Assembly: GCA_026026165.1 (NCBI GenBank)
Contig: JAPEUD010000026.1
Span: forward strand, 248,001 to 276,807
DNA: 28,807 nt
Direction: 5' to 3'
Source of the DNA: Sarea resinae
Taxonomy: Eukaryota
A program made the position numbers and the translations under genes. Under the pieces are notes generated by a model that was not told the DNA's origin, made no database searches, and saw only the letters and a program-made list of their open reading frames with translations. Positions 1,953-28,807 of this stretch are shown in pieces (position 1 is the first letter of the stretch; the number at the start of each line of letters is the position of its first letter).

Positions 1953-4900
1953 CTTGCGGTGGAGAAGATATTGATTATCTTCGAAGACAATAGTGTATAT
2001 ATGTGTTTGCTAGATGATGGTGCGGTATCGAAAAAAAAAAAAGAGCAAAGACAAGCTGGAAGCAGAGGGGTAGTTATAGTCGTGGACAGGCTGGGTCAGA
2101 GCTCAAGCTCGAGCTCGAGCTCAAGCTTCAAGTTCTCAGGCATCCCAACCAACAGGGGAATCTCCTCGAAACAGGGGATCATTCTCGGAATCAGCTGGTA
2201 TCAGCGCACGATTCACTGCAATCAGCTCGCTCCGTCCTCTGAGTGAAGATGTTGGCAACAATCATGCCGTCCAGGCATGTTTTCCGGGGGCGGCAAAGCT
2301 CTGGCCTGTCCTAGCTCACGCGGGCCGCCTGAGAGCTAAGCTTTTGCGAAGAGCAGGGTCAGAAGGGGCCAGCCCCCAAGCGCAAGGGACATGGTAGCAA
2401 TCGAGGAATCCATCAGATGGATTTGGGCTTAGCCAGTCAAGGGCGTCTCGTCGAAGTGGCCTGTAGCGCTGTAGCATAGCTTCTTCCACATGCACGCATC
2501 ACGCCTGAGACGTCCACGGCTGCGGCAATTAGGGACTTGGGGGGGGGGGCTTCTCCATAGACAGATGCTAGACATGGATGATTGAGCATGGACCCGATTC
2601 GGGTGAGGTCGCAGTCCAGGAACAGAGAGAGAAGCGACCGAGATGAGAGATGAGAGATGAGAGAGAAAGAAGAAATTCACGATCGACAAATGGGGGCTGG
2701 ACTGCCAACCCGGCTGGCCCCGTCGATGAAACAGAGAGCAAATGGTCCAGGGACGCGGTGGAGTCGTGACCGTGAGTAGCAGTGAGCGCTGCAAGGTACG
2801 GTAGCAGGGAAATCATGCTCGACATGCATGGAGAAGCTCTGGCGAGAGTCGAAAGTTGGAAGGAAAGAGGCGTCTGCGACGTGTGATTCGCTTCTAGGGC
2901 CCCGGATCGGTGGCCGCGTGGAAAATGATAGATTCCCAGGATGTCGATGGCGTTCGAGATGTTCGAGACGTTCGAGACGTCCTGCTAAGCTTTCGGCGAT
3001 TAGCCTCCGTCCGTCGTGCCAGTCTCTCGTTACATTGGCTTGCCCGTTCATTAGCTGCTAGAGGGAGGAGGTCAGGTAAAGCATCGACCATGCGTGTGCC
3101 CTTGGTCGATGGGGCCATTATCAGATAACGATCTAGTGAGGACGCATCTGGACCCTGCCATGTCGAGGCTTGACGATAGAAGATCGAAGATGCAAGATGA
3201 GCGTCACCATCCATGCATCTGTTTCCTCGCCATGGTCCGGCATCTTCACGCTCTGCAACAGGACGGCCGAAGCGGCAAAAGGGGCAGAGAGTGAAGAGAG
3301 GGACGGATCGAGCGGCGAAGGCCGGGGTGAGCAGTCGAGACGACGCATGTGGCTGAGAGGAACATGGCCTGAAACGGCCATTGATCCCATCACCATCACC
3401 ATGACCATCATGATTATCACCACCACCACCACCCACCACCATCAACCCCTGTGCTCCGTAGGCTGCCCCCCTACTCGGTACTTGCTCCCCGCATCACAGA
3501 GGTCGAACACCGTCTCATACCGTACCTACCACCCACCACCCACCCAGACAGGTGTCTCCCACGCTCCCCACGGCCTTCCCGGTGTCCCATTCCCATGCGC
3601 CCCTTTCACCTTTCATCCACGCCCGTGGTCAGGTCCGTGGTCGTGGCCGTGAATTGTCCCCGTTGCAGAGATCGTCCGTCCATCGGATCACCACGGTCGC
3701 CCTGCGCTTGAGGTTCCAACATCTCCGCACTGCCGGTCGCGCGTCCGATCTCGTAGCTCGTACCCTCCAGCCACTGACATCGAAGGACTTCTTCATCCAC
3801 GGCAGACGATCTGTCGGTCGCCTTATGGGACATGCAGGTGCAGGTGCAGGTGCAGGTATGCCTGTTGTACAAAGTATCCATGTAATCCTAAACCTCTCCT
3901 CTCCAGCTCCTACTGCAACTCGGACGAACACCACCACCACCACTTCGTCTGGTCGTCTCCAAGATCACGCACGCGCCCGCCGCCCGCATCCTGTGCCTAT
4001 CCAAGACCAAACAAGGGCAAGGGGTCTCAGCCTTTCCCTCGGACTCTGAGGACTCTGGAAGCGTGTGAAGTCTTCTGGACTTTGGACTGACTCCTAGTTC
4101 CCTGACTAAAACGTGCACACTACTCAGCCTAGTATACTGCGTAGTACTGCACTCCGGAGTAGTCTCCGCTACCTTACTCCTTACGCCGTACTCCGCTCCA
4201 CCCATTGAATAGTCTTGACAACGTGAATGGAACAGAGGCGGACGATATTCCGCTCGATTGTAGACCCGACCCGTGCCTATCATCTCCTGCTTCCTTTCTC
4301 CTTCCTCTTTCCCCGTCTCCATCCTGCATGAGAGAGTGAGGACAGTGATCGAAGCCAGCGCGCATGTCCATAGTCTGTACGTAACGCACGTAAACACGAT
4401 GAACACCACCGGATTCAGGCCAACGACTACTCTACCGCCAGGACATCATCTCTCAAAGGACGGCACCGGCGGCGGGGGCCTTAGCCCAAACCATGGCGAT
4501 ACATAGTTCAACGGCTACGGTGACATGGCGCGGCCGGGTACCCAAGGTATACTCTACCGGCGCACCTACCTTACTCTACTCTAGGTACTTACTAACTCTA
4601 CCGGCTCCATCATAGCAGAGTACGGACACAGTAGTAGGTAAAAGTATCATGCAAGGCACCGGCGCTTCGACCCAGAGACGGGAAGGGCTTGGAAGTCCAA
4701 GTCGAGGTCGAGGTCGATCGAGGTCACGATGGGAGTCAGCCAGCCAAAGGTACGAGCGCACGCACGCAATAATGTATTCTCTTCCCAGCTTCTCTCCGCT
4801 GTCCCGATGCCATCCATCGTCGCCATCATCGCCGTTGGTCGTAGCCAAGGTAGCCGACAAAAAGATGCAATTGTCCACCTGTGCCTCATGCAAAGCATCC

Positions 4901-6225
4901 ATTCCGCCAGCCAGCCAGCCAGCCATGCGGACGGGAAGCCATCAGCCATACCCGTCCAGGCGCCCCTCGCCCCTCGCCGCCCGACGATCGCCAACGACCA
5001 ATTCGCCGTTTTCGTCGTAGAACGAATGCCCGAAATGGAAAGATGATATGTAAGGCTGTAGAGTAGGCCCGTGGGCGGCATAGAGAGCCCCAAAAGAAAA
5101 GAAAAGAAAAGAAAAGAAACACGTACATACCTACCCATCAATAAGGACGAATAGGACAAATGCCCTCTCCAACCTCCCTACCTACCTAGGTACCTACAAT
5201 ATCTACTAACCTACATGTTGGTTTGTCACGAGCCCGCACGGCTGCTGCCATTGTGTTAGTACATAGTAGTGGCCGTTGTCGTCGTTGCCGTCGTCGTTTG
5301 TTGTCGCCGTCGTTATCGTGCTCGTTGGTGATCTATCTACCTATCTCGGTATCTATCTTGCCGCCCTACGAACGAACAATGAATGGAATGATCCCATCGA
5401 GTATCGATCGACGGGCGGATCTGCTTTGGGAAGGTCTCATCGCGCGGTATCCGTGCCTGCTGTACCTGACCTAACCCATCACAACTCTTCTCTACCTACC
5501 TTAAGGTACCTTTCCTTACCTAGAGCTGCACCGAGCTGCACCGCACGCACGTAGATTACCTACCTAAGGGACCTAAGGTACCTAGGTAGGGCCCAGAAAA
5601 CGGCAGCGAAACGAACGAACGAAGGAAGGAACGAACGAGCGTAGCGCAGACCATGTTGGGCCCGAGTTGGTTTCGACCGATCGGGTGATGCTCGGACGGC
5701 TCCATTCCACTATCGTATGAAGTATTACATGACTCCGGAATGTACAGCGTACTACTGTGGTACTATGGGGGCCTGCCTCTTCTTTCCGGAAAGAGCCATG
5801 CATACATGCATCATCGACTCTTGGCTGCTACTCGATTCCCAAAGGAGAATCACGCGGGACACAGACCGTAAGGCGGACAACGATCACGACGACGACGGCA
5901 ACAACAACAACCGCAATGACGGCCCGATAGCAATTTACGTACGTACGTAGGCACTTGAGTTCTTGATTTTCTTGCGGGCAAACTATGTAACGGTCATGGT
6001 TGTATAACTGGCCTGTGGGCGAAAACAAAACCCCCCTACAGACACGCACAGCACAGCAGGGAAAACGGAACAGACAAGATGCAATCAGAGAAAAAATACT
6101 CAAACACAAATAAAACAGACATCTGCTTGCTACTCGAACAAAGTTGGGCGCTCGCTAATACAACAAGAAGAAAGGGAAATGAATTAGTCGTAGTCGGGAT
6201 GGATGATTATTACGGCGTGATCGAT

Positions 6226-9200
6226 CTATCGACATGTAGGACATCCGAGCCCCGATTCCCCTGGATCATTATGCGCACCGGAACCAACAGCAGTAGCGCT
6301 AGTGGTGGTGATGCTGGTAGTAGTCGGAGCTGTAATCGCACCGTCTGATGCCGCCACCCGTAGTGTCTCCAGACATCTGGTATGCACAACGTGGCCGCAC
6401 GCAAAGACGATCAAGGGGCCCAGATCTTCCATGGGCACGACGGCGTTACCTTCAGGGCCACCACCGAGCATCGCAGCTTCGTTCTCATCCTCCCCTGCGG
6501 TGCCATGGCCAAGATGCATGCCGCCGGCCTCGGCCATGATCGAGATTGGATCGCCTTCGACATCGCTGGTCGCCCTACCCTTTCCCCTCTCCAACGATCG
6601 AGACGACAGCCCTTGGGATTGTTGTATTCTTCTCCGTGCCTTTCTCTTCCGCTCCGCTTCCCGTCGTTTCTCCCAGGCGTGCCACTCGTTGCCACCCACG
6701 CCCGGCCCCCATACTTTCCGGTTGCAGCCTTCGCACGTCTGATCTCTTGCTCGCCAACCTCTTTGTCTGAGATCGGCGGCCTCCGTGACGTGTACAAAGA
6801 GGTCCTTATCGAGGAGTCGATTCGCCAGGGCAAGGATAGATTCTTCATACGCGTAAGCTGAGAAAATCGTCGCAAGGACGCCGCGGAGGTCCGAGAGCGA
6901 AGGGGATGAGAGAGAGGCCCGTGCCAAGAAGGCTTGGAGAATTCGAAGGAAGGAGAAGTCAGTGTGGACAGCCGTGCCATTTGGAGTGGCTTTAGGCGTG
7001 ATTTGAGATGTCGTCGCAAGCAGAGCGGTAAACGTCTGCTGAACAGCGGTCCGAAGCGAACCGGTGAGCTTTATTGATGGTGAGGATGGGGTATCTGCAT
7101 TGCTTCCCTCTGAGTCTGACTTTTGCTGGATCGCTGCCGAAGCATTCTTGGTGATGCCGACGACCGTGTCTATGAGATCAAGCCAAAGAAGCTCCTCGTT
7201 GGACATCTCTTGCTTTGCAGAAGACAATCCTTTGCCATGGTTTCCCGTTGATACGGTTTTAGATTTCAGAACCGTCTTCATGTGGTTTTGGCAAAGCCAG
7301 ATTCCCACCTGAGTATACTTGTGTATTGCCTCTGCAAGATCTTGAGCGCTCTCGTCGGCCTCTGCACGATTGCTGTCGCTGGTCTCCACACCAAGGACGC
7401 CCATCAATGCCGCTTCCAGCGTACCGAAATGCTGTATGAGCCGGTCCATGGCTTGCCTGACCTTCCCTTCCCTAGCCATGAGGACAACTGCGGCATCAAC
7501 TACTCCGGTGTTCTCTATAGCCGGAAGGACCTCCTCCAGTCTCAGATCTCCCGATTGCAGAAGGTTGATATAGTCAGCAACATGGGAACGATCATACTCA
7601 CACATCAATCGAACGTATTGCTCAACAAAGGCATGATTGGGTGTCTCGCGATCCGTACGGAAGACCCCAGAAGATTGATCTTCGGGTTCTAGAATGGTTC
7701 GAAGGTATTCGAATTGCGCACAAGGATTGTCACTGAGCGCATCCAACATGGTCTGATGCAGGTCTGGGGCGTAAGCGGCAATAGCCATTGCAGTCTTCGA
7801 AGTGTCGATATTTGCGAGTTCCCGAGCATTTTTGATGATTACAGAACGTACTTCACGGCTTTGTCGGTCATTGAGACCAGTGCGAGGTCGCAGGCAATCG
7901 CCAATGCACTCGAATATAGCTTGCTGATTATCGTGGTCGTCGAAATACGTCTGCAGTAAGTCGGCGTACCGTTTCTCCTCCTTGAACAAAGACTTCAGCA
8001 CCCTGTAAAACCCGGCATTTCGGAATCGTGGCACTAAAGAAGTAAGGTCCGGCGGATGGTACATCGACATCAGATACTCGACGCTGAGCTGGCAATCGTC
8101 GGCGATATCGATTGACGGATATTCGCAAAGGTCCAAGAGAACGCGATGCAAAGTCGTACCGGGCAGAAGAATAAATTGTGGAAATTTTGGTAGGTTCCGA
8201 GCAATAAACATCGCCAGGTATATCGTGTCTTCCGAGCCGAAATTCTGAGGTGACAGCACTTCTAGAAGAATGCTGACAATAAACTGACGATTCACCGATA
8301 GCCCAAAGACCTCGTCGTCTCCCAAGTCTCGTCGTGTCCCACCGTTGACCATACTTTCGCGTTCGCCGTTCAAAAAGCTGTCCTCAAATGCTTCGTTCAA
8401 AGCACTCAACAAGCTTGGTGCGTCAAATTGAAGTATCATTCGTAGATATGGAAATGAGGGCTCTGGCTCCTGGGCTGGTCGCGTAAGGACGGGCTTGCCG
8501 GACTCCTTTGGCCATGCGATTGTCCTTCCAGAGAACAGGAAGTAGTAAATTTGCGCCTTTCCCTTCGAGGCTTCGAGTTCTGGCAACGTCTCTCCGTTTG
8601 GATAAATACGGCTGGTCAATGCGTATGAGAGATATGGGAATATCTTCAAAGCATAAACAGACGAGTACGGTTCCTGTACCTTCTCTCCATTGACGGGCGT
8701 ATCTCGTGGGGGCGGGGGCTTGAGCAGAGAGAGTAGCTCAATGAGAGGGGTGATGTAATCTCCCATTGCTCGATTCCATACGTAGATCAATGCGTCATAC
8801 AATTTGTGCTTTCTGCACATCGTCGTAATCTGGTCAAGATCCATAGTTCTTGTGTCCAGATGGCAAATCATCTCTTCCATCCTTGCTTCAAGGCCTTTAG
8901 AAACATAGTGATTTATGAGATCCTTGATGACCGTCGGAGGAACAGATTGAATAGAAGAGTCCAAAATATAAGGCTCGAGAGCTTCGAGGAAGACGCCTGC
9001 CGACGAGCTGTCTGAATAGCGTTCGTAGACCTCGTCGAAAAGAAAATCAGTATCGTCCATGCTGATGCATGCCAGTAAACACGAAGCTGCCAGCTGATCC
9101 AGTTGGCGCTTCTCAGTCTGCCTTGCCCCTGCTCTGTCACCCGATCCAAAAACGTACTTAAGGGAGGCGGACATCATATCGATAAGCTTTTCCTGGACCA

Positions 9201-20731: not shown

Positions 20732-22163
20732 TCAGCCCGAGCCAGCTTCAAGTTGAGCAGGCGTGACAGATGAATTCGGAGCAGAAGGGACACCATCGCT
20801 AGAGGGTCCCTGACCATTCTCGGAATGGCGAGTGCGTCTGAGTCGACTAGGCACGCGAATCGAAGGCCAGCTCACGTTCCTAAACGGATTCGAGATTTGA
20901 GGCCGCCAGGAGCGGCGGGCGGTCACGTCAGATGAGGTGCCGGTGTAATTGCTGTGATGCTCAAGCTCTCGTCCTCTGGAAGCGTGACTGGCAGGTCCCC
21001 GGCCAGACCGCCCAGAAACTATCACCCTTGAGCCCCAGGGATATCGTCTTCCATTGATGAATGCGGCGGTTGGAGTTGCCAGCATAGGTCCCCGCGAACG
21101 GGAACGAGTCATGCCAACCACGCGTCGACCGGATCGGTTGGTATCATGAGCCGCGGCCGCTTCGCCCTCGGGGCGCGGCTTGGGTGTGTAATAATCTGCT
21201 TTGCACAGAGGACAGCAGGCTCGACGACTCGTTAACCAAGGATCCACACAGGCAGCATGGAATGCATGGCCACATGTAAGACCGCGAACATCGTTATCGT
21301 CATCCAAGGTGTCCAAGCAGATGGCGCATGTGTCCCCGGAGCTGTTGACCAGCTCCGGAGGGATCGCCGAATGGATATGTTCATCCTCCTCCTCTTCCTC
21401 ATCTTCCCCTTTGATGTCATCCGCTGGAGCCACGGTACTTGCCAGGGTGTCGGCCTTCTCCAGTTCTTCGACCACCGGCTCCTGTTCTTCGACTGTCATC
21501 TTGGAGAGTCGCTTATCCGAGTCTGCCGATGGCCCTTCTACCCCGGCTTCTATTTGCTTGATCGGATCTTCAGGTATCTCGTGAGCCGTAGAATCGTCAT
21601 CTCGAGTAGATGTTGCAACGACTGGCCGCGGGCCTTCATCGGAGCGGCGCAGGTCGCTGGTAGCTGAGATGATCCCATCTGCATCTCTGATGCTTCCCGG
21701 AGCACTTTCAGGAGCTATGATACCTCCTGCTGTCGACAAGCCTTCGCTCTCCCGAGAAGCTCTCCATGCTTTGTACTTGGTCGTTGGAAACCGCTCGTTC
21801 ACCTCATCCATCGTCATGAGCTTCTTCTCTCTCCTCCGTCGATGGGGTCGGGGCATTGTGGCCATGTCTATCGGTTGACCGTTCTCGGCATCCCTCAGCT
21901 GCTGGTTTCTTCGGTTGTATCTGTAGCAGTATTTGACGCCAACAATGATCCTGAAAGATACGCTTTAGCAGGAGGACCAGACGCGGCCATCAGACAGGGT
22001 CGCAAGCATACCATAGATTCGTAAATACAACACCAAATCCGAGAGCGACAAAGAATAACAACGGAGAATTGGTGCTGCCGTGGTGGCCGGAAGAGGTGGA
22101 CGTCTGGGTGGGCGCCGATGAGGTGGCCGACGGAGACGCCGTTGACGAAGGACTAGGATTCAT
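20732..22163 (-). CDS. Single-pass membrane RING-H2 E3 ubiquitin ligase, ~456 aa, 2 exons
   Basis: Exons 22163-22012 and 21950-20732; intron GTATGC..CAG. Ser/Thr-rich N-terminus, TM segment SPLLFFVALGFGVVFTNLWIIVGVKYC, RRRREKKLMTMDEVNERFP, RING-H2 CAIC..CGHAFHAAC..W..CPLC. Confidence 0.88.
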
Positions 22164-23111
22164 GATCGATCCTCAGAGTATGAGAGGCAGGAGTGGCGTT
22201 GACCCTCCCCCACAGGTCTGAGACCCACTCCGACGGTACTGGTCGGGAATTCTCAGGCAGCGCGGAGATGCTGCCTCCCAGCGTTCGATTTCAGGTCAGA
22301 GGAGAGAACAGCGCGACACAGACGCGCTTGCTCCAATTCAAAGTCGACGTGAGGAATCGTTGTCGGTTCGCATGCTACCGGTCCGAACGACGAGCTATCG
22401 TTGGAAGAGTGATGGATGATCGAGAACGGAAGTCGAAGGCTGGAAGAAGGGTGTGCCAAGGACGTTGCCGCTGACGAGCCGCTGTCCCGCCTTCAGGTGG
22501 GCGAGGTAAGGTAAGCTTTGGAGGCTGGAGGCTGGAGGCTTCGTAGGGCAGGGAAGTGAGCCAAGATCCGGGGCGGGAGGGGGCATCAACTAACTTCAGT
22601 CTGTTGCTCGTGCCGCATGTACGATTATGTACAGTGTTTGTGTGTGCATCTCCAGTCGTTTGTCATGGTGAGCGGGAGACCAAGAGTGGAGAAGATTATC
22701 CGCCCCTAAGCAACTGTTGCGACGATCGAGGCTCCTTGAGGAATAGTTGGCTCGTAGCGGGAATGGATTCGCCTTGTCTTGGTCCGCGACGACAGGTACT
22801 CGGAAATACTTCGTCCTTTGCATGAATCATCAATCAAAGAGTGAAGACGGACGACTGAAACAAGCCGAAAATGGCTGACGGAGAAGACGTGAAGCAGAGC
22901 AGAAGAGAACAGAGGGAGAAGAAGGACAGCGAAGAAGAAAGAGGGCCGAAAAGCTAAATGATGTATACAAACAATTCACTGTTGTCGAGCGTGGAATGAA
23001 TGGATGAAATTGTCTGCAGCCCTCAGCCAGTACTTGAGTGATACCTGCTCGCTATGTGAAGGACGACCACGACCAATACCTGAGGGAATCATCAGCTATT
23101 CTGCTGCCGAG

Positions 23112-23158
23112 AAATGTGACAAAGGTGACAAATGTGACCGAAAGTGACAGAAGTGACA
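23112..23158. repeat. Five GTGAC cores at 9-10 bp spacing in the RING / NTase-like divergent intergenic region
   Basis: GTGAC at 23116, 23125, 23134, 23144 and 23153, each preceded by an A-rich spacer. Confidence 0.8.
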
Positions 23159-23302
23159 AGTTGGGACTTTGACCAAGTAAGATAGACTGAATATCATCTC
23201 TTCACCTTCTTCTCCTATTTGAAATTCCTTTACCTTACGAATCCTTTGTGCAATCCGTGTAGTTCCTATCATCATCTGTCGCACGGCCGGCAAAGCAACC
23301 TC

Positions 23303-24103
23303 ATGATCATTACCAGATTCATCTCGCTCCGAGCCAGCTTCACTAAAAGGCTGTTGAAATGGAATACTCGACAGACTTCCAGCACGTTAACCTCAGATGG
23401 ACCGAACAGCAACGATCGCTATGGAGTGTGTGATATCCTGGCCGAGAAAGGTATTTCAAGCGTTATCTGGTTTGAGGATCTTTTAGCACTTTACGGCAGC
23501 GATACTCAAGTATGGGATCTCAAACTCCTCGTACAAGACCCTCGAGAGGCAGCAAATGTCCTTCTCCACGCTGGCTACAAGGAAACATCACACCAGCTGC
23601 ACTTCGATGAGGACCCCGAGTCAAGCAAACGAGGTGTTCGCATGGCTGTCACGTCATCTGAGACTGGTGTTATGCTGCTCCCCACACGCGACTGGTATCA
23701 TACTATGGACGAGGAGAGCACACGGAAATATGTCCCTTCCCTTCACAGCTTCATCGATTCCATGATCGAATTCTGGCTTAATATTTCCTCCCGCGATTAT
23801 GTGGATAGGGTGGGTTTTGCGCTCTACATTGGCTGTCTGATCAACTACTGCTACGCTCTCAAGGACGAGAATGGCGAACCTGTCCGAGATCCTGCATACG
23901 CAAACAAGCTCAAACCTGAACACCGAGAGCTGCATTACGATATCGTTGCAGATTGCCCTAGGAAGGATAGCTTTACAACTACACAACAACACCAGTACCA
24001 TACTAGAAGGAGCAGAGAGATTAAAGAAGGCCTTTTCACACCTCAACCACATCAAAAAAAAGATGCGTTCCGGGCGCCTTTGCCACCACTTATAGAGCAC
24101 TGA
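23303..24103 (+). CDS. Intronless hypothetical protein (~266 aa) with a degenerate nucleotidyltransferase-like N-terminal motif
   Basis: Open frame from the first ATG (23303) to TGA. VIWFEDLLALYGSDTQVWDLKLLV..AANVL..AGY follows the strand-helix-YG-x6-D-strand pattern of minimal NTases. Basic, acid-free N-terminus. Confidence 0.72.
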   Translation: MIITRFISLRASFTKRLLKWNTRQTSSTLTSDGPNSNDRYGVCDILAEKGISSVIWFEDLLALYGSDTQVWDLKLLVQDPREAANVLLHAGYKETSHQLHFDEDPESSKRGVRMAVTSSETGVMLLPTRDWYHTMDEESTRKYVPSLHSFIDSMIEFWLNISSRDYVDRVGFALYIGCLINYCYALKDENGEPVRDPAYANKLKPEHRELHYDIVADCPRKDSFTTTQQHQYHTRRSREIKEGLFTPQPHQKKDAFRAPLPPLIEH

Positions 24104-24193
24104 GGACAGGCACACAAGGTGCTAGAATACTTTCTCGCTGGAATCATCTTCGAACTCTGTTTCGATTTGACTCTGTGCCTTCGGTGTAGATGC

Positions 24194-25108
24194 TCACATG
24201 ATGATGCATCTCTTTGGCCTAAGCTTACCTGTGTTGCGATCACTTCTGCACTTTAGATTCTTGTTTCCTGCATGAGAAGCCATCGCGACATCCACCACCT
24301 TCGAGATATCAAACGTCGCCAACTCTGACCTCCTATAACCTTTCTGGTTTGCCACAACGCGCTTATTTGTCTGTGGATCCTGGACATCGCAATTAAAATG
24401 CGTGTGTCCAAATGCCCACAGCCCAACGTTTGGACTTGTCCAGCACTTTTGATTGGAGATGTCAGTGACGAAAGCAGATCGGATCTGAGCAGAATCATCC
24501 ATGTGCCTAGGATCATTGCAAGCCTCGAGCGTCGTTGGGCTATGGTGTGTGAAAATGGCAATTGAGCGTTCTGGCTCATGCAGTGCAAGCTCTGCAACCT
24601 GACTGTTTAGCCAGTTCACATCGGTATCATGTGCAGCACAATGCATGTCCACAGTCCAATCGATGATGTTGGAGAAATCGGAGACGAAGCAAGCTACCGA
24701 TTGCCGCTGTTCGGGCAAGATGCAGGAAAATAGCGTGCATCCCAGAATAGTCACGCTGTCTGTGAGATCGTACCTCGTGCGATCCAGAAAGACAAATCTG
24801 CCTGAAACTGAACCTTGCGATATGCGCCGTCGCTCCATATTTTCCTCGAAGGCGCGAACGCTAGCTTTTGCAGCAGAGAAGTCCATCCCGTACGGCTCGT
24901 GATTGCCTAAGAGGAAGAAGACAATCTCGAATCGACGCAATTGTTCTTCCAGGAAACCGAAAAGCCGTGGATCCGCAGCGCTCCCTATATCTCCTAGGAG
25001 AGCGAGAAACCGACATTGAGGCTGAATCTCGAATTCTTCGTATGTAGGCCGTGCTTGCGGGGTCTCCAAGTGGAGATCGGACATGATCTGAAGCCGTATG
25101 GAGGACAT
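24194..25108 (-). CDS. Calcineurin-like metallophosphoesterase, intronless, 304 aa, with C-terminal CaaX (CIIM)
   Basis: All five metallophosphoesterase motifs are present in order: SDLHLE, LGDIG, LGNHE, FTHHSP, FGHTH, followed by NQKGY. Confidence 0.92.
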   Translation of the reverse strand: MSSIRLQIMSDLHLETPQARPTYEEFEIQPQCRFLALLGDIGSAADPRLFGFLEEQLRRFEIVFFLLGNHEPYGMDFSAAKASVRAFEENMERRRISQGSVSGRFVFLDRTRYDLTDSVTILGCTLFSCILPEQRQSVACFVSDFSNIIDWTVDMHCAAHDTDVNWLNSQVAELALHEPERSIAIFTHHSPTTLEACNDPRHMDDSAQIRSAFVTDISNQKCWTSPNVGLWAFGHTHFNCDVQDPQTNKRVVANQKGYRRSELATFDISKVVDVAMASHAGNKNLKCRSDRNTGKLRPKRCIIM

Positions 25109-25979
25109 GCTGGAACGACTTGTGATCGATTCGTCTTCGCAGAGCCACTAGCCTCCCGATAGTGAAGGTTCTGTATTGCAGAAAACTTTAGGACATTCTT
25201 TGAGCTCTTATAACGAGAGCCTGGTTCAGAAGATCGCTTGATATCCACAAGCGCTGGAGCTCTCATCCATGTGGTTCTGGTGGTCGAAGGAGTACTCGGG
25301 AATTTCCATGGGCTGAGATATCGGCTAACCACATTATTTCATTTGCCCATTTACTCCGTGCTCTGTACTCGCCGCAAGTGGATGATTTGATTGGTCAGTA
25401 GCCGCAGGTCTGTCCAGGGCTGTGTAACACCAAACACCCCAAGTCACAGCTCTCCCGAGTATTGATTTTTGACGCATCTTGGAATAATTATAACTCCAGC
25501 GCGAAGCCGTGCCAAGGGCCTTGGGCCAATAGATGTCAATTTCAGTCATGTTTCATGACCGGCGACAATTCCTTCCAAACATCGCTCAGAATGGGTGATA
25601 ACAATGGTTTCGACTCAGCCCTTTCAATATCATCATATGACGGCGCTATAAACAGCCAATCGTAGCCAGGAAGCTTGCGCGGCGTCAGCACATGTTTGAA
25701 CCTAATCAACAGCGCCTAATCCTGGTTTCTTTACTCTGCTTTCGCTATGCACCTTTATCGAAGAGGAGAAAAGTTGCATGAGTCTCAAGATGGTAGGTTG
25801 ATGAGAAGACTGGCCTACTATATGTACCGCTTCCTCTGACTCTCGTTGCGAGCTGCTCTGCGCCCTCTGTAATACCAACTCCTTTCTATCGACATCGAGT
25901 ACTTTGTTCGTTCCTTACAGTTCCGTCTCCGCGATCACTGCTGAGTCTTGTATTGTGAATTGTCCCCATCATATCTATC

Positions 25980-26888
25980 ATGGGTTGCGGCAGCTCCAAG
26001 CAAGCTGACAGCAGGCCTGCGTCCGCAAGGCCTGTACCTTCACGGCGAGCCCACCCTGTAGAGTTGCAGCACATGGGAGCAGCATCTACCAGCGGCACAC
26101 AAACAAATCCAGAGCGAACTGGCAAGCCGATGAGCCCAAAGGTAAGGGCTGAACTTCTCAATGCCACCCACAGGGCATTTGGAGATCTGGACTACTGTGT
26201 CATTGGAGGATGCGCGCTCGCTGAATACGGCAATCAGCGGGGAACGTCAGATTTAGATGTCATGGTTCCGCATGAGATATCGGAGGTTGTCACCGGCCAA
26301 TTGCTTTCTCATGGAATAGTGCGAACGGCTCGGGGTGGACTTGGGTAAGTGGCATCATCTCTATCACCCATCAGCTCCATCAGTGATCGTTGCGATATCT
26401 ATTTCTTTGCTGTTTTCAAACCCCTTTTTTTGTGATCCCAAGCCGTCAAGAAGGGATTGCTTACAAACTTTAGCTACATCGCCTCCAACGGTCAATGTTA
26501 CGGACTCGACATCACGACAGACCGAGCAGTTGGGCAAAGATTCCCCAACACTCAACAGGTATCAGGCACTACGGCTCGACTGATGCCTATCCGATCCCTC
26601 TTAAATTCCAAAGCCTACTCCTACATGACTCGGGCAGGGTCCGACGCGTCCGTGAAGAAGTCTAGCGACGCCCAGGACATCCTCTTCATTGTCAACAACA
26701 TGCGGATGAACAATCTCGTCACCAACCGGAACGAATGTCCCTGGGTCGTCGATTACGACTTCTGGACCGAGTTCTGCCAGAGGTACCCAAGGGCGGAAAA
26801 TGATTTTCGGTCTCTAGGCTTGCAAAGAGATGCAACGCCAAATTCCAGTCATCGATCAAGCAGGAGTCGGGCAAGTAGTCGGACTTGA
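25980..26888 (+). CDS. Minimal (AbiEii/MenT-like, pol-beta fold) nucleotidyltransferase, ~259 aa, 2 exons, N-terminal MGCGSSK
   Basis: Exons 25980-26344 and 26474-26888; intron GTAAGT..GCTTAC..TAG restores the frame. Motif VIGGCALAEYGNQRGTSDLDVMV (GG + DxD), a third Asp in GLDI, and C-terminal LLNSK..R..K..DAQDI. Confidence 0.8.
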
Positions 26889-27425
26889 GAACTAGACGTG
26901 TAGCACGAAGAATGCAAACATTGTAAATCAATCAGGCAAAATTACGTGATATATGGGACGCGTTGGCTGCTCCATAATTGTAGACAAAACTACGCTCAAA
27001 AGTATACACAACAACCCATTAAAATGTCGAGCTATTCTTAGACTGCAGAGCGCGAGTTAGTGTCATATGAGGTGCAGCTTTGCTTTATAGAGAAAATGGT
27101 CGGATATATTATATAATACAGCATTTGATGGCAATATCCATAGTATCAGTTCCGCATCGCCAGGGTGACGCCAGCACGCCGCAGTGCACTAGCCTATTCG
27201 ATCGTGCTATTCCTACCTACTCTACCATAGCTAGAAGTCCAGGAGGCAGTCTGACAGAATTTCACCAACAGATTGATAGAAAGATACAAAGTACCTCACC
27301 TCCCAAAGTCAATTTGATCATCCACTTGTCATCGAATCTTCCTCGGACGGAATTCATATCCCAATTCAACGCTCTCACGCCTTCTCTCCCCGGTCAATCA
27401 CGCCTTCAAAATCCCAGAACAGACA

Positions 27426-28724
27426 ATGGCTGAATCAGGGACGCCCGTGGCGCCATCGTCCACGAATCCAATCGTCTTCTTCGACGTCGCGCTTGGAGGT
27501 ACGTCGATATCAATCAATCTCCCGGCCCCCGTTCATGGCCCCCTCTTCATAGAGCCCAACAGCAAGGCCATGATTGTTATGCTCTTCCTTGTCTTGAGTC
27601 CTTTCACCCTTTTACGATCGTGCTTGCGTCTTTACTCCAGCGGCTGCTTCTTTCTTGATCACGTGATTATCAAAGCCCTGAACCCCCCAGCCCTCACATC
27701 CATTTCCGTTCCATTCTCCTTTTCATCATCACTATGCAGCCAGCTAGTTCTCTATATATTACCTGCTTTCATTTTTATACAGCCCCTCTCTTTACGCTAC
27801 CTTTGTATCGCCTTACCCTACACCGTCCTGACCAACAAACACTCTACCCTCAATCCTTTCAAGCCTTTACGTTTCCCCTTCCCCCCAAGCCTACTGCATC
27901 CCGCTCTTCTAACCACAAAGTAACAGGCGAGCCGCTCGGCCGCATAAAGATGGAGCTATTCTCCTCGATCGTGCCGCGCACCGCCGAGAACTTCCGCCAA
28001 TTCTGCACCGGGGAGACGAGATCGCCACTCGGGCGACCACAGGGGTATAAGGGGAGCAAATTCCACCGCGTCGTAAGGCCCCTCTATCCCTCCTCTCCTC
28101 TCCTCTCCTCTCCTCTCCTCTCCTCTCCTCTCCCCCCTCTACACACCCTATCCCTCCTCTTCATCGCCCGAAGCTCTCTTTTCTATCCTCTTCTCAGCAA
28201 AACTAACCACAAGGCCCACGGACCGGGGGGCGCGCGGAAACCCAGATCAAAGACTTCATGATCCAGGGCGGCGATTTCCTGAACGGCGACGGCACGGGCT
28301 CGACCTCGATCTACGGCACCAAGAGCTTCGCGGACGAGAACTTCACCCTGAAGCATGACCGCCCGGGCCTACTCTCCATGGCCGTAGGTCCCACCCCCTT
28401 ACCCCTTTCCCCCTTGTCCCCTCCCCCCCCGGAAACTCTCGCACATCCTCCCTTCCCTCCCTCCCATCCCATCCCACCAACATGATTCACCGACTAAGTC
28501 GCTCAATCCAGAACTCGGGCCCCAACACCAACGGCTCCCAGTTCTTCATCACGACAGTGCCGACGCCCTTCCTGAACAACAAACACGTCGTCTTTGGCGC
28601 GGTGCTGACCGACGACGCCGACGGCGGCGCCAGCATGGACGTGGTGCGCAAGATCGAGAACGTGCGGACCAACCGCGAGAAGCCCGCCATGGATGTCGTC
28701 ATCACCATGTGTGGCGAGATGTAA
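27426..28724 (+). CDS. PPIH: Peptidyl-prolyl cis-trans isomerase H (U4/U6 snRNP cyclophilin), ~189 aa, 4 exons
   Basis: Exons 27426-27498, 27927-28072, 28246-28383, 28512-28724. [62 protein letters not shown] in LNNKHVVFG context, and a C-terminal CGEM typical of CypH. Confidence 0.93.
27570..27681 (+). ncRNA. Possible intronic box C/D snoRNA in PPIH intron 1 (tentative)
   Basis: C-like ATGATTG (27570), D'-like TTGA (27655), C'-like GTGATTA (27663) and D box CTGA (27678) lie in the expected order inside a 428-nt intron. The C box is non-canonical and no target was identified. Confidence 0.3.
28093..28133. repeat. (CTCTC)n pentanucleotide repeat in PPIH intron 2
   Basis: ctctcctctcctctcctctc... 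about 8 units. Confidence 0.9.
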
Positions 28725-28807
28725 GTAAGGTAGGTAGGTAGCGGTTTGAACTTGGGGGGTTTGGTATGTTTTGTTTTTGGTGGTGGGTGGGGGGGGGGGG
28801 GGGGTGA

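Follow-up and report, generated by a model that had tools for sequence, protein, structure and literature searches.

Three compact genes, which we refer to as A, B and C, lie next to one another in a 28,807-nucleotide stretch of the genome of the fungus Sarea resinae (NCBI GenBank assembly GCA_026026165.1, contig JAPEUD010000026.1, positions 248,001 to 276,807 of the forward strand). This whole stretch is called the window below, and coordinates are counted from its first nucleotide. C encodes a predicted nucleotidyltransferase (NTase) of the DUF1814 type, B a calcineurin-like metallophosphoesterase and A a protein with a predicted NTase-like fold and degenerate catalytic motifs. A first-pass annotation, made from the sequence alone, had singled out this trio, and all of its open-reading frames (ORFs) were found where it had placed them, with none, none and one intron in A, B and C, as were the flanking RING and cyclophilin (PPIH) genes; the spacing was likewise as described, with 90 bp between the stops of A and B and a B-C distance that had been put at ca. 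870 bp and measures 871 bp. From the comparisons with other fungi given below, we consider it probable that the trio is a conserved, functionally coupled fungal module and not a chance neighbourhood. The features of the locus are:

23303-24103, forward strand: gene A, an ORF of 266 amino acids (aa), identical to database protein P0001
24194-25108, reverse strand: gene B, an intron-less ORF of 304 aa
25980-26344 joined to 26474-26888, forward strand: gene C, 259 aa after splicing, one intron
25980-26344, forward strand: exon 1 of C, with the MGCGSSK start, a low-confidence linker and the hGG and TxDxD motifs
26345-26473, forward strand: intron of C, 129 nt, with a GTAAGT donor from 26345 and a TTAG acceptor to 26473
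26474-26888, forward strand: exon 2 of C, with D134, K168, D190, a helical domain and a Ser/Arg-rich tail
24104-24193: spacer between A and B, 90 bp between convergent stop codons
25109-25979: intergenic region between B and C, 871 bp between divergent start codons, a presumed shared promoter
24197-24208, reverse strand: codons C-I-I-M ending B, a CaaX prenylation signal, with the basic run KLRPKR just before
25980-26000, forward strand: codons M-G-C-G-S-S-K starting C, a signal of the N-myristoylation and Cys-palmitoylation type
20732-21865, reverse strand: RING-H2 protein gene, flanking the trio
28258-28724, forward strand: cyclophilin exons, flanking the trio

The spliced product of C is identical to P0041, a database entry labelled hypothetical protein M1819_002893 and derived from a Sarea resinae metagenome-assembled genome (MAG), and exon-sized homologue fragments stop at the same point as the end of C exon 1. 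The B ORF, read without an intron, aligns with its homologues end to end. The window's own B protein was missing from the database matches, whereas A and C were returned; the B gene may be unannotated or otherwise modelled in the source record.

Gene C encodes a DUF1814-type nucleotidyltransferase

C had been described in the first-pass annotation as an NTase of the AbiEii/MenT type with intact motifs, a description borne out by residue conservation, profile matches and fold. All of the motif residues (G76-G77, D91-x-D93, D134, K168 and D190) are present, and across 34 aligned longer members of the family G76, G77, A79, G84, D93, K168 and D190 never vary, conservation of R87 and T89 is 90% or higher, and the third acidic residue, D134, is Asp in most members. 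Motif I reads I75-G76-G77 and motif II reads R87-G-T89-S-D91-L-D93, the latter aligned with RFTRDVD of MenT1, so that T89 of C aligns with the Thr of that motif, i.e. the phospho-acceptor T39. This MenT1 residue is named as the phospho-acceptor in the PDB title 8rr5 and in two texts (bioRxiv 10.64898/2026.01.19.700257; PMC11375011).

An exhaustive HMMER search (E ≤ 1e-3) gathered a C family of 113 representatives, the query included, many of them pieces the size of an exon that stem from prokaryote-style gene calling. When exon 1 of C was used in a word-indexed search, nothing beyond the protein itself was returned, and the family surfaced only with the exhaustive search. Compared with the PDB, the family profile matched Pb27 (5uvd, E 9.8e-10) and MenT1 (E 7.4e-5). 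The structure model of C (predicted local distance difference test, pLDDT, 87.3) was closest to 5uvd (Z 17.1, root-mean-square deviation (rmsd) 2.6, 184 aligned residues) and MenT1 (Z 13.7, rmsd 3.3, 165 aligned residues), followed by TglT/MenT3 (Z 11.7), ANT(2'')-Ia (Z 11.2), JHP933 (Z 11.1) and MenT4 (Z 10.1), and Foldseek agreed (5uvd at E 1.5e-9). Searches with the single sequence did not identify the family: P0041 drew no Pfam match even at E 10 and so falls short of the PF08843 (AbiEii) threshold, the PDB search with exon 1 and an hhalign comparison of a profile with the single C sequence gave nothing meaningful, and there was no match for C in NCBIfam or PADLOC. Ten of the 34 family members did match Pfam AbiEii at E ≤ 0.1, the best at E 3.9e-5. 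As P0041 itself has no Pfam match, the family membership of C rests on profile and fold and not on a curated model. Because motif conservation, profile matches and fold scores concur, we call C, from its sequence and predicted structure, a DUF1814-type NTase with intact catalytic motifs.

Gene B encodes a calcineurin-like metallophosphoesterase

B was said to hold all of the metal ligands of a metallophosphoesterase, and it does: it matches Pfam Metallophos PF00149 (E 1.3e-6, 29.4 bits vs. a cut-off of 21.5) and carries the motifs D-x-H, G-D, G-N-H-E, H and G-H-x-H, in which the ligands D11, H13, D40, N69, H70 and H188 are invariant and H235 and H237 at least 90% conserved across 32 aligned homologues. 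The family is large, with 1739 homologues at E ≤ 1e-3, of which 120 are listed; the counts given below on protein ends and same-size contigs refer to these 120. Neither a single-sequence PDB search nor the B profile found a solved relative, PADLOC gave no match, and NCBIfam gave one faint match only (TIGR03767, E 0.033, far under the cut-off). Bacterial relatives of B, single-domain metallophosphoesterases, align over the full length at 22-29% identity and have the metal-ligand motifs in common. One database protein of 57% identity to B (P0154, 268 aa) carries a source label that makes it a partial metallophosphoesterase from a Candidatus Bathyarchaeota archaeon. On the B tree, however, it falls among fungal sequences, beside Cephalotrichum, and a fungal contig wrongly binned with an archaeal MAG is the probable explanation.

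Gene A has a predicted NTase fold with degenerate catalytic motifs

The claim that A is NTase-like and lacks the catalytic residues stood in its second half, while the NTase fold itself is a prediction of moderate score. The motif of A, VIWFEDLLALYGSDTQVWDLKLLV, is without the GG and without the second Asp. A word-indexed search returned 39 homologues at 44-68% identity (40 matches with A itself); Pfam and NCBIfam hold no family for A, PADLOC gave none, a single-sequence PDB search gave nothing meaningful and the A profile found no solved relative. In the structure model (pLDDT 76.6) confidence is low for residues 1-36, and the remainder is predicted to adopt an NTase fold. The fold comparison that had been proposed for such models gave NTases as the nearest solved folds of A as well as of C: for A these are ANT(2'')-Ia (Z 9.5), MenT1 (Z 9.4) and Pb27/5uvd (Z 8.1), with further matches to TM1012, TglT, JHP933 and LnuA and to the antitoxin AbiEi (Z 6.9). 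Foldseek returned the same NTase set (E 5e-4, with weak template-modelling (TM) scores of 0.3-0.4), and A and C alike have LnuA and ANT(2'')-Ia among their nearest folds. The structure neighbours of A in the Atlas are AbiEii, NTP_transf_5 and DUF2204 clusters (TM 0.41-0.68), and A is set there beside larger unnamed ascomycete clusters.

When A and C are aligned co-linearly, the GG of C falls on F57-E58 of A (consensus l-E), D93 on K74 (H in most A homologues), K168 on a Met and D190 on a Tyr. Only D72, the equivalent of D91 in C, is retained, and this residue is invariant in the A family; other conserved polar residues in A are H207, R208, E209, H211, H230, H233 and R169. It is reasonable to regard A as an NTase fold with dead catalytic motifs, the modelled fold being a moderately strong call. 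An identity as a heterokaryon incompatibility protein, the source name of the homologue P0278 of Botrytis deweyae and of the rank-1 Atlas cluster, was considered and rejected, as no Pfam domain was found in the six A homologues scanned. Two Lachnellula homologues of A (P0008, 431 aa; P0025, 384 aa) have an N-terminus 120-165 residues longer than the family, with no Pfam domain there, which could be a gene-model artefact or an added region.

Lipid-anchor signals on B and C

Lipid-anchor signals had been noted on both B and C, and judged by their sequence patterns these are conserved family traits. B ends in KLRPKRCIIM, with Cys fourth from the end, a polybasic CaaX tail. Among the 120 listed homologues, 57 likewise end in C-x-x-x, 50 of these 57 with at least three K/R in the preceding 10 residues, and the trait shifts at least 12 times on the tree of 121 B sequences. 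An MG or MC start is found in 25 of the 42 C-family representatives that have at least 45 residues ahead of the hGGxA motif, vs. 3 of the 120 listed B homologues. The consensus for N-myristoylation asks for M-G at the start, Ser or Thr as the sixth residue and a Cys close by; by sequence the start of C fits this N-myristoylation/S-acylation pattern in all three respects, and a C homologue at a second locus (L003, described below) starts MGCGPS.

Polybasic CaaX tails are of the K-Ras4B type and MGC dual-acylation heads are of the G-alpha and Src-family type. B resembles the first in its basic run followed by C-a-a-X, although 63 of the 120 listed homologues have no CaaX, and C resembles the second in its M-G-C-x-x-S start, with the MG/MC pattern conserved in the C family. 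From these signals C is probably placed at the inner face of a membrane by N-terminal acylation, and the polybasic CaaX tail would place B at the membrane in many lineages, that of the window included. Bacteria are not known to carry out CaaX prenylation. Seven of the 39 A homologues (P0003, P0004, P0006, P0022, P0023, P0026 and P0032) have an MG start, typically MGN-x-K-S or MGNKASK, and the A of the window starts MIITRF; all three proteins may therefore carry lipid signals in some lineages.

The neighbourhood recurs across five classes of Pezizomycotina

The first-pass annotation had looked to gene neighbourhoods across Pezizomycotina to separate a linked set from a chance cluster, a complete lack of co-occurrence in other genomes being among its grounds for rejecting the module; these grounds do not hold. 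A-B, B-C and A-B-C neighbourhoods do recur, in five classes, though unevenly, A-B being the commonest and often without C nearby. According to source locus tags and accessions, A and B are consecutive in nine named species (Lachnellula willkommii, Sclerophora amabilis, Botryotinia narcissicola, Botrytis galanthina, B. deweyae, B. fragariae, B. aclada, B. hyacinthi and B. elliptica). Seven metagenome loci (L001-L007) were fetched by scanning contigs with the A profile, and their neighbours were read by tblastn and hidden Markov model scans: B directly adjoins A in five of them (L002-L006), L001 is a 1.3-kb contig and uninformative on neighbours, and L007, likewise uninformative, begins within A and has the same downstream ORF pattern as L004, where B lies upstream. 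In addition, 11 of the 39 A homologues lie on a contig of exactly the same size in bp as the contig of at least one listed B homologue, a match compared by eye between tables and used as a proxy for a shared contig.

C takes part in these neighbourhoods in several ways. Geoglossum umbratile and Cephalotrichum gorgonifer each have B and C as consecutive genes, and in B. galanthina C, A and B follow one another in this order. Among the 20 closest C representatives, 10 lie on a contig identical in bp size to that of a listed A or B homologue, and the 10 that do not match say little, since only 120 of the 1739 B matches are listed. The full trio is found together in the window, in L003 (with the order and orientation of the window) and in B. 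galanthina, and apparently on one 5,428-bp contig (P0031, P0069 and P0172).

Arrangement and surroundings vary between loci. The window, L002, L003 and L006 have A and B in convergent orientation; in L004 and L005 the two genes diverge, with B upstream. The trio is flanked by the RING and cyclophilin genes in the window, the A-B pair of L004 by Chs7 and an RCC1/F-box gene, and the L003 block by DNA of 6-25% guanine-plus-cytosine (GC) content; between L003 and the window the match is confined to the three-gene block and the flanks are without a match. A short tblastx match of L002 and L006 to 28390-28455 of the window was judged spurious (22 residues in a proline-rich translation). The B-C intergenic region of the window and its L003 equivalent have no common k-mers of 10 nt or more, and no conserved element was found in this comparison. 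In L003 (1-14461) the block, at ca. 3300-7700, forms a GC island of 47-50% within the AT-rich DNA, whose flanks hold almost no ORFs of at least 70 aa and look like degraded AT-rich repeat DNA.

The linked cases cover Sareomycetes, Leotiomycetes, Coniocybomycetes, Geoglossomycetes and Sordariomycetes, and the linked B proteins stand on both sides of the midpoint-rooted B tree. The bacterial relatives of B, for all their likeness in length and motifs, have no such neighbours: at none of 77 bacterial loci did the surrounding DNA, up to 6 kb of it, hold a gene resembling A or C, so the pairing looks fungal. It is this recurrence in other fungi, and not the window by itself, that makes the trio more than a chance arrangement.

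A proposed membrane-tethered module with opposed activities

The first-pass annotation had suggested a writer/eraser/regulator or toxin-antidote cassette acting at the plasma membrane, for example in allorecognition, cell death or antiviral signalling; this reading is supported in part, in its family assignments, its lipid-anchor signals and the recurrence of the neighbourhood. The trio combines a phosphoesterase with an NTase that has the acceptor Thr and with a non-catalytic protein for which the same fold is predicted, and for this reason we favour an antagonistic module. C would make a phosphodiester or phospho-adduct by placing a nucleotide onto an RNA end or other hydroxyl; alternatively or additionally it would phosphorylate itself at T89 in the active site, in the manner of MenT1, MenT3 and AbiEii. 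B would hydrolyse the bond made by C, and A, itself non-catalytic, would bind B or C or else present the substrate on which they act. As to the target of B, the nucleotide added by C or the phosphate on C, the faint sequence likenesses of B lean to phosphodiesterases. An antagonism of NTase and phosphoesterase between C and B seems to us about evenly balanced between right and wrong, and we put at about even the chances of the best overall explanation, a coupled, membrane-tethered NTase/phosphoesterase module with a pseudo-enzyme partner and antagonism as its likeliest logic. Any single detailed mechanism would be tentative at most and is unlikely to hold as written.

Several observations weigh against this reading. 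The fold match of A is moderate, its Z of 9.5 comparing with 7-8 for chance-level best matches, and A and C are only weakly alike in a profile-profile comparison (E 0.012, probability 3.6%, co-linear over 171 columns). The faint likenesses seen in the bacterial relatives of B are to CpdA, YfcE and TIGR03729 phosphodiesterases and not to protein phosphatases, which weakens the version of the mechanism in which B acts by dephosphorylation. CaaX is missing from 63 of the 120 listed B homologues, among them a well-supported 22-row clade in which the sequences of Botrytis, Lachnellula and Phialocephala fall, so that the pairing does not depend on tethering B to a membrane. The families differ greatly in size, the 1739 matches of B far exceeding the 40 of A and the 113 representatives of C (self included in both), the neighbour check covered a minority of B genes, and same-size contigs are a stand-in for a reading of the DNA itself. 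A C relative was found in only one of the five A-B metagenome loci (L003), where the readable DNA beyond B or A is at least 2 kb in L002, L004 and L005 and ca. 1.1 kb in L006, and no A homologue was detected on the Geoglossum and Cephalotrichum contigs by a word-indexed search that could miss one. Because C is scarce at A-B loci and A went undetected at the B-C contigs, the trio may be two overlapping pairs.

These last observations bear on a different division of the cluster, in which the real unit would be A with B, a phosphoesterase with a pseudo-NTase subunit that works independently of the NTase, and C would be a facultative neighbour in some lineages. A-B is indeed the commonest pattern, in nine named species and five of the seven loci, its adjacency holds down to 36-38% identity of A (L004, L005 and L007), and C accompanies it at just the one locus in five. 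Against this, half of the 20 closest C relatives are on contigs size-matched to that of a listed A or B homologue, C is kept in the cluster of B. galanthina despite the changed gene order, and B-C pairs occur in two further classes; we judge an A-B unit to be unlikely, though a serious contender.

The activities of B and C could also be joined through a second messenger, with C making a signalling nucleotide at the membrane, B degrading it as a phosphodiesterase and A serving as a non-catalytic receptor. The faint likeness of the bacterial relatives of B to the cyclic AMP phosphodiesterase CpdA and to YfcE-type phosphodiesterases suits such a second-messenger circuit, as does the conserved polar pocket (H207, R208, E209, H211, H230, H233 and R169) that A retains on its NTase-like fold, and CD-NTases are among the distant fold matches of C (Foldseek ranks 36, 39 and 49). 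Those matches are weak, however (TM 0.24-0.27), the close relatives of C are DUF1814 enzymes, described in the literature as adding nucleotides to the 3' ends of transfer RNA (tRNA), and no effector-like gene came up in the cluster, where none was specifically examined, which leaves the circuit improbable.

That there is no functional tie at all, the adjacency being inherited synteny or the hitch-hiking of three accessory genes in one variable region, is in our view very improbable. The examples come without exception from a single subphylum, the loci examined number only some dozens and the same-size contig matches are indirect, yet the adjacency persists while order and orientation vary (A-B-C vs. 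C-A-B, convergent vs. divergent A-B), the flanks differ at every locus read and the cases extend across five classes. There is a slight chance that C nucleotidylates an antibiotic or metabolite in the manner of ANT(2'')-Ia and LnuA, which are among the nearest folds of A and C, with A and B in the same detoxification or metabolic route, but the conserved block has no transporter or biosynthetic gene, the conserved dual lipid anchors better suit a signalling or conflict protein, and ANT(2'') (Z 11.2) is a more distant match to C than either Pb27 (Z 17.1) or MenT1 (Z 13.7).

Relation to bacterial toxin-antitoxin systems and other fungal DUF1814 proteins

The closest described counterparts of the favoured antagonistic module are the DUF1814 toxin-antitoxin systems, now type VII, represented by AbiE (AbiEi-AbiEii of Streptococcus agalactiae) and MenAT1/MenAT3 of Mycobacterium tuberculosis. 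As described in a preprint (bioRxiv 10.64898/2026.01.19.700257), the toxins add nucleotides to tRNA 3' ends; they are silenced by partner-induced auto-phosphorylation, at T39 in MenT1, S78 in MenT3 and T65 in AbiEii (same preprint and PMC11375011), and Ser/Thr phosphatases reverse this in vitro, the in vivo role being called open in the preprint. Like these toxins, C has the DUF1814 fold and the motifs hGG, R-x-T-x-D-x-D, a third Asp and K...D, it retains a Thr aligned with the phospho-acceptor of MenT1, and it is accompanied by a non-catalytic neighbour, A, that in its predicted fold resembles the AbiEi antitoxicity domain. We liken A to this domain because the two have the same structural neighbours, ANT(2''), LnuA and 5UVD in the account of AbiEi given in PMC7319586, and because AbiEi itself matches A at Z 6.9.

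The differences are considerable. The host of the trio is eukaryotic and its genes are under separate promoters, A lacks a winged-helix DNA-binding domain, no relation of its sequence to AbiEi or MenA could be detected, and no COG5340- or COG4861-type winged-helix antitoxin gene was found in the window from 21500 to 28807. The trio further includes a dedicated metallophosphoesterase gene and lipid-anchor signals. We regard it as rather unlikely, though by analogy conceivable, that the trio is a eukaryotic descendant or analogue of type VII toxin-antitoxin or abortive-infection systems, rebuilt for the fungal cell. Under such a scheme C would be a tethered DUF1814 toxin silenced by auto-phosphorylation of T89, which the pseudo-NTase A would induce in the role of the NTase-like antitoxicity domain of AbiEi, and B would re-arm the toxin when triggered, for example by infection with a mycovirus, by non-self fusion or by damage to the membrane.

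The nearest solved relative of C, likewise fungal, is Pb27 of Paracoccidioides brasiliensis (5uvd), an antigenic NTase-like protein with 18-19% sequence identity to C. Dy et al. 2014 (PMC3985639) state that fungal DUF1814 homologues are unlinked to antitoxin genes. Such homologues carry annotations in many fungal genomes, and two further papers (PMC13468701; PMC13448219) call their function unclear. The first of these papers describes an expanded set of AbiEii-domain proteins in a Colletotrichum siamense strain, 11 of them predicted to be secreted (PMC13468701); among fungal DUF1814 proteins this expanded set belongs to another branch than the acylated C family. In the literature searched, whose scope was that outside subscription journals, there was no account of A-B-C linkage or of a prenylated fungal metallophosphoesterase of the B family. 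The trio is thus a new, conserved eukaryotic arrangement of known enzyme families.

Implications

Conserved gene clusters of a non-metabolic kind are uncommon in fungi. DUF1814 NTases are understood only as bacterial toxins, and the recurrent linkage with a phosphoesterase and with a dead version of their own predicted fold puts the fungal DUF1814 proteins in a testable context. An NTase that can be silenced by phosphorylation, encoded with a dedicated phosphoesterase, also bears on the question of how bacterial toxins are re-activated, as this is put in the preprint (bioRxiv 10.64898/2026.01.19.700257). If the trio is indeed a rebuilt toxin system of this type, the cluster would supply the dedicated reactivating phosphatase sought in the bacterial field, and should the module turn out to kill or arrest cells, fungal systems of cell death, incompatibility or antiviral defence could have a new component in it.

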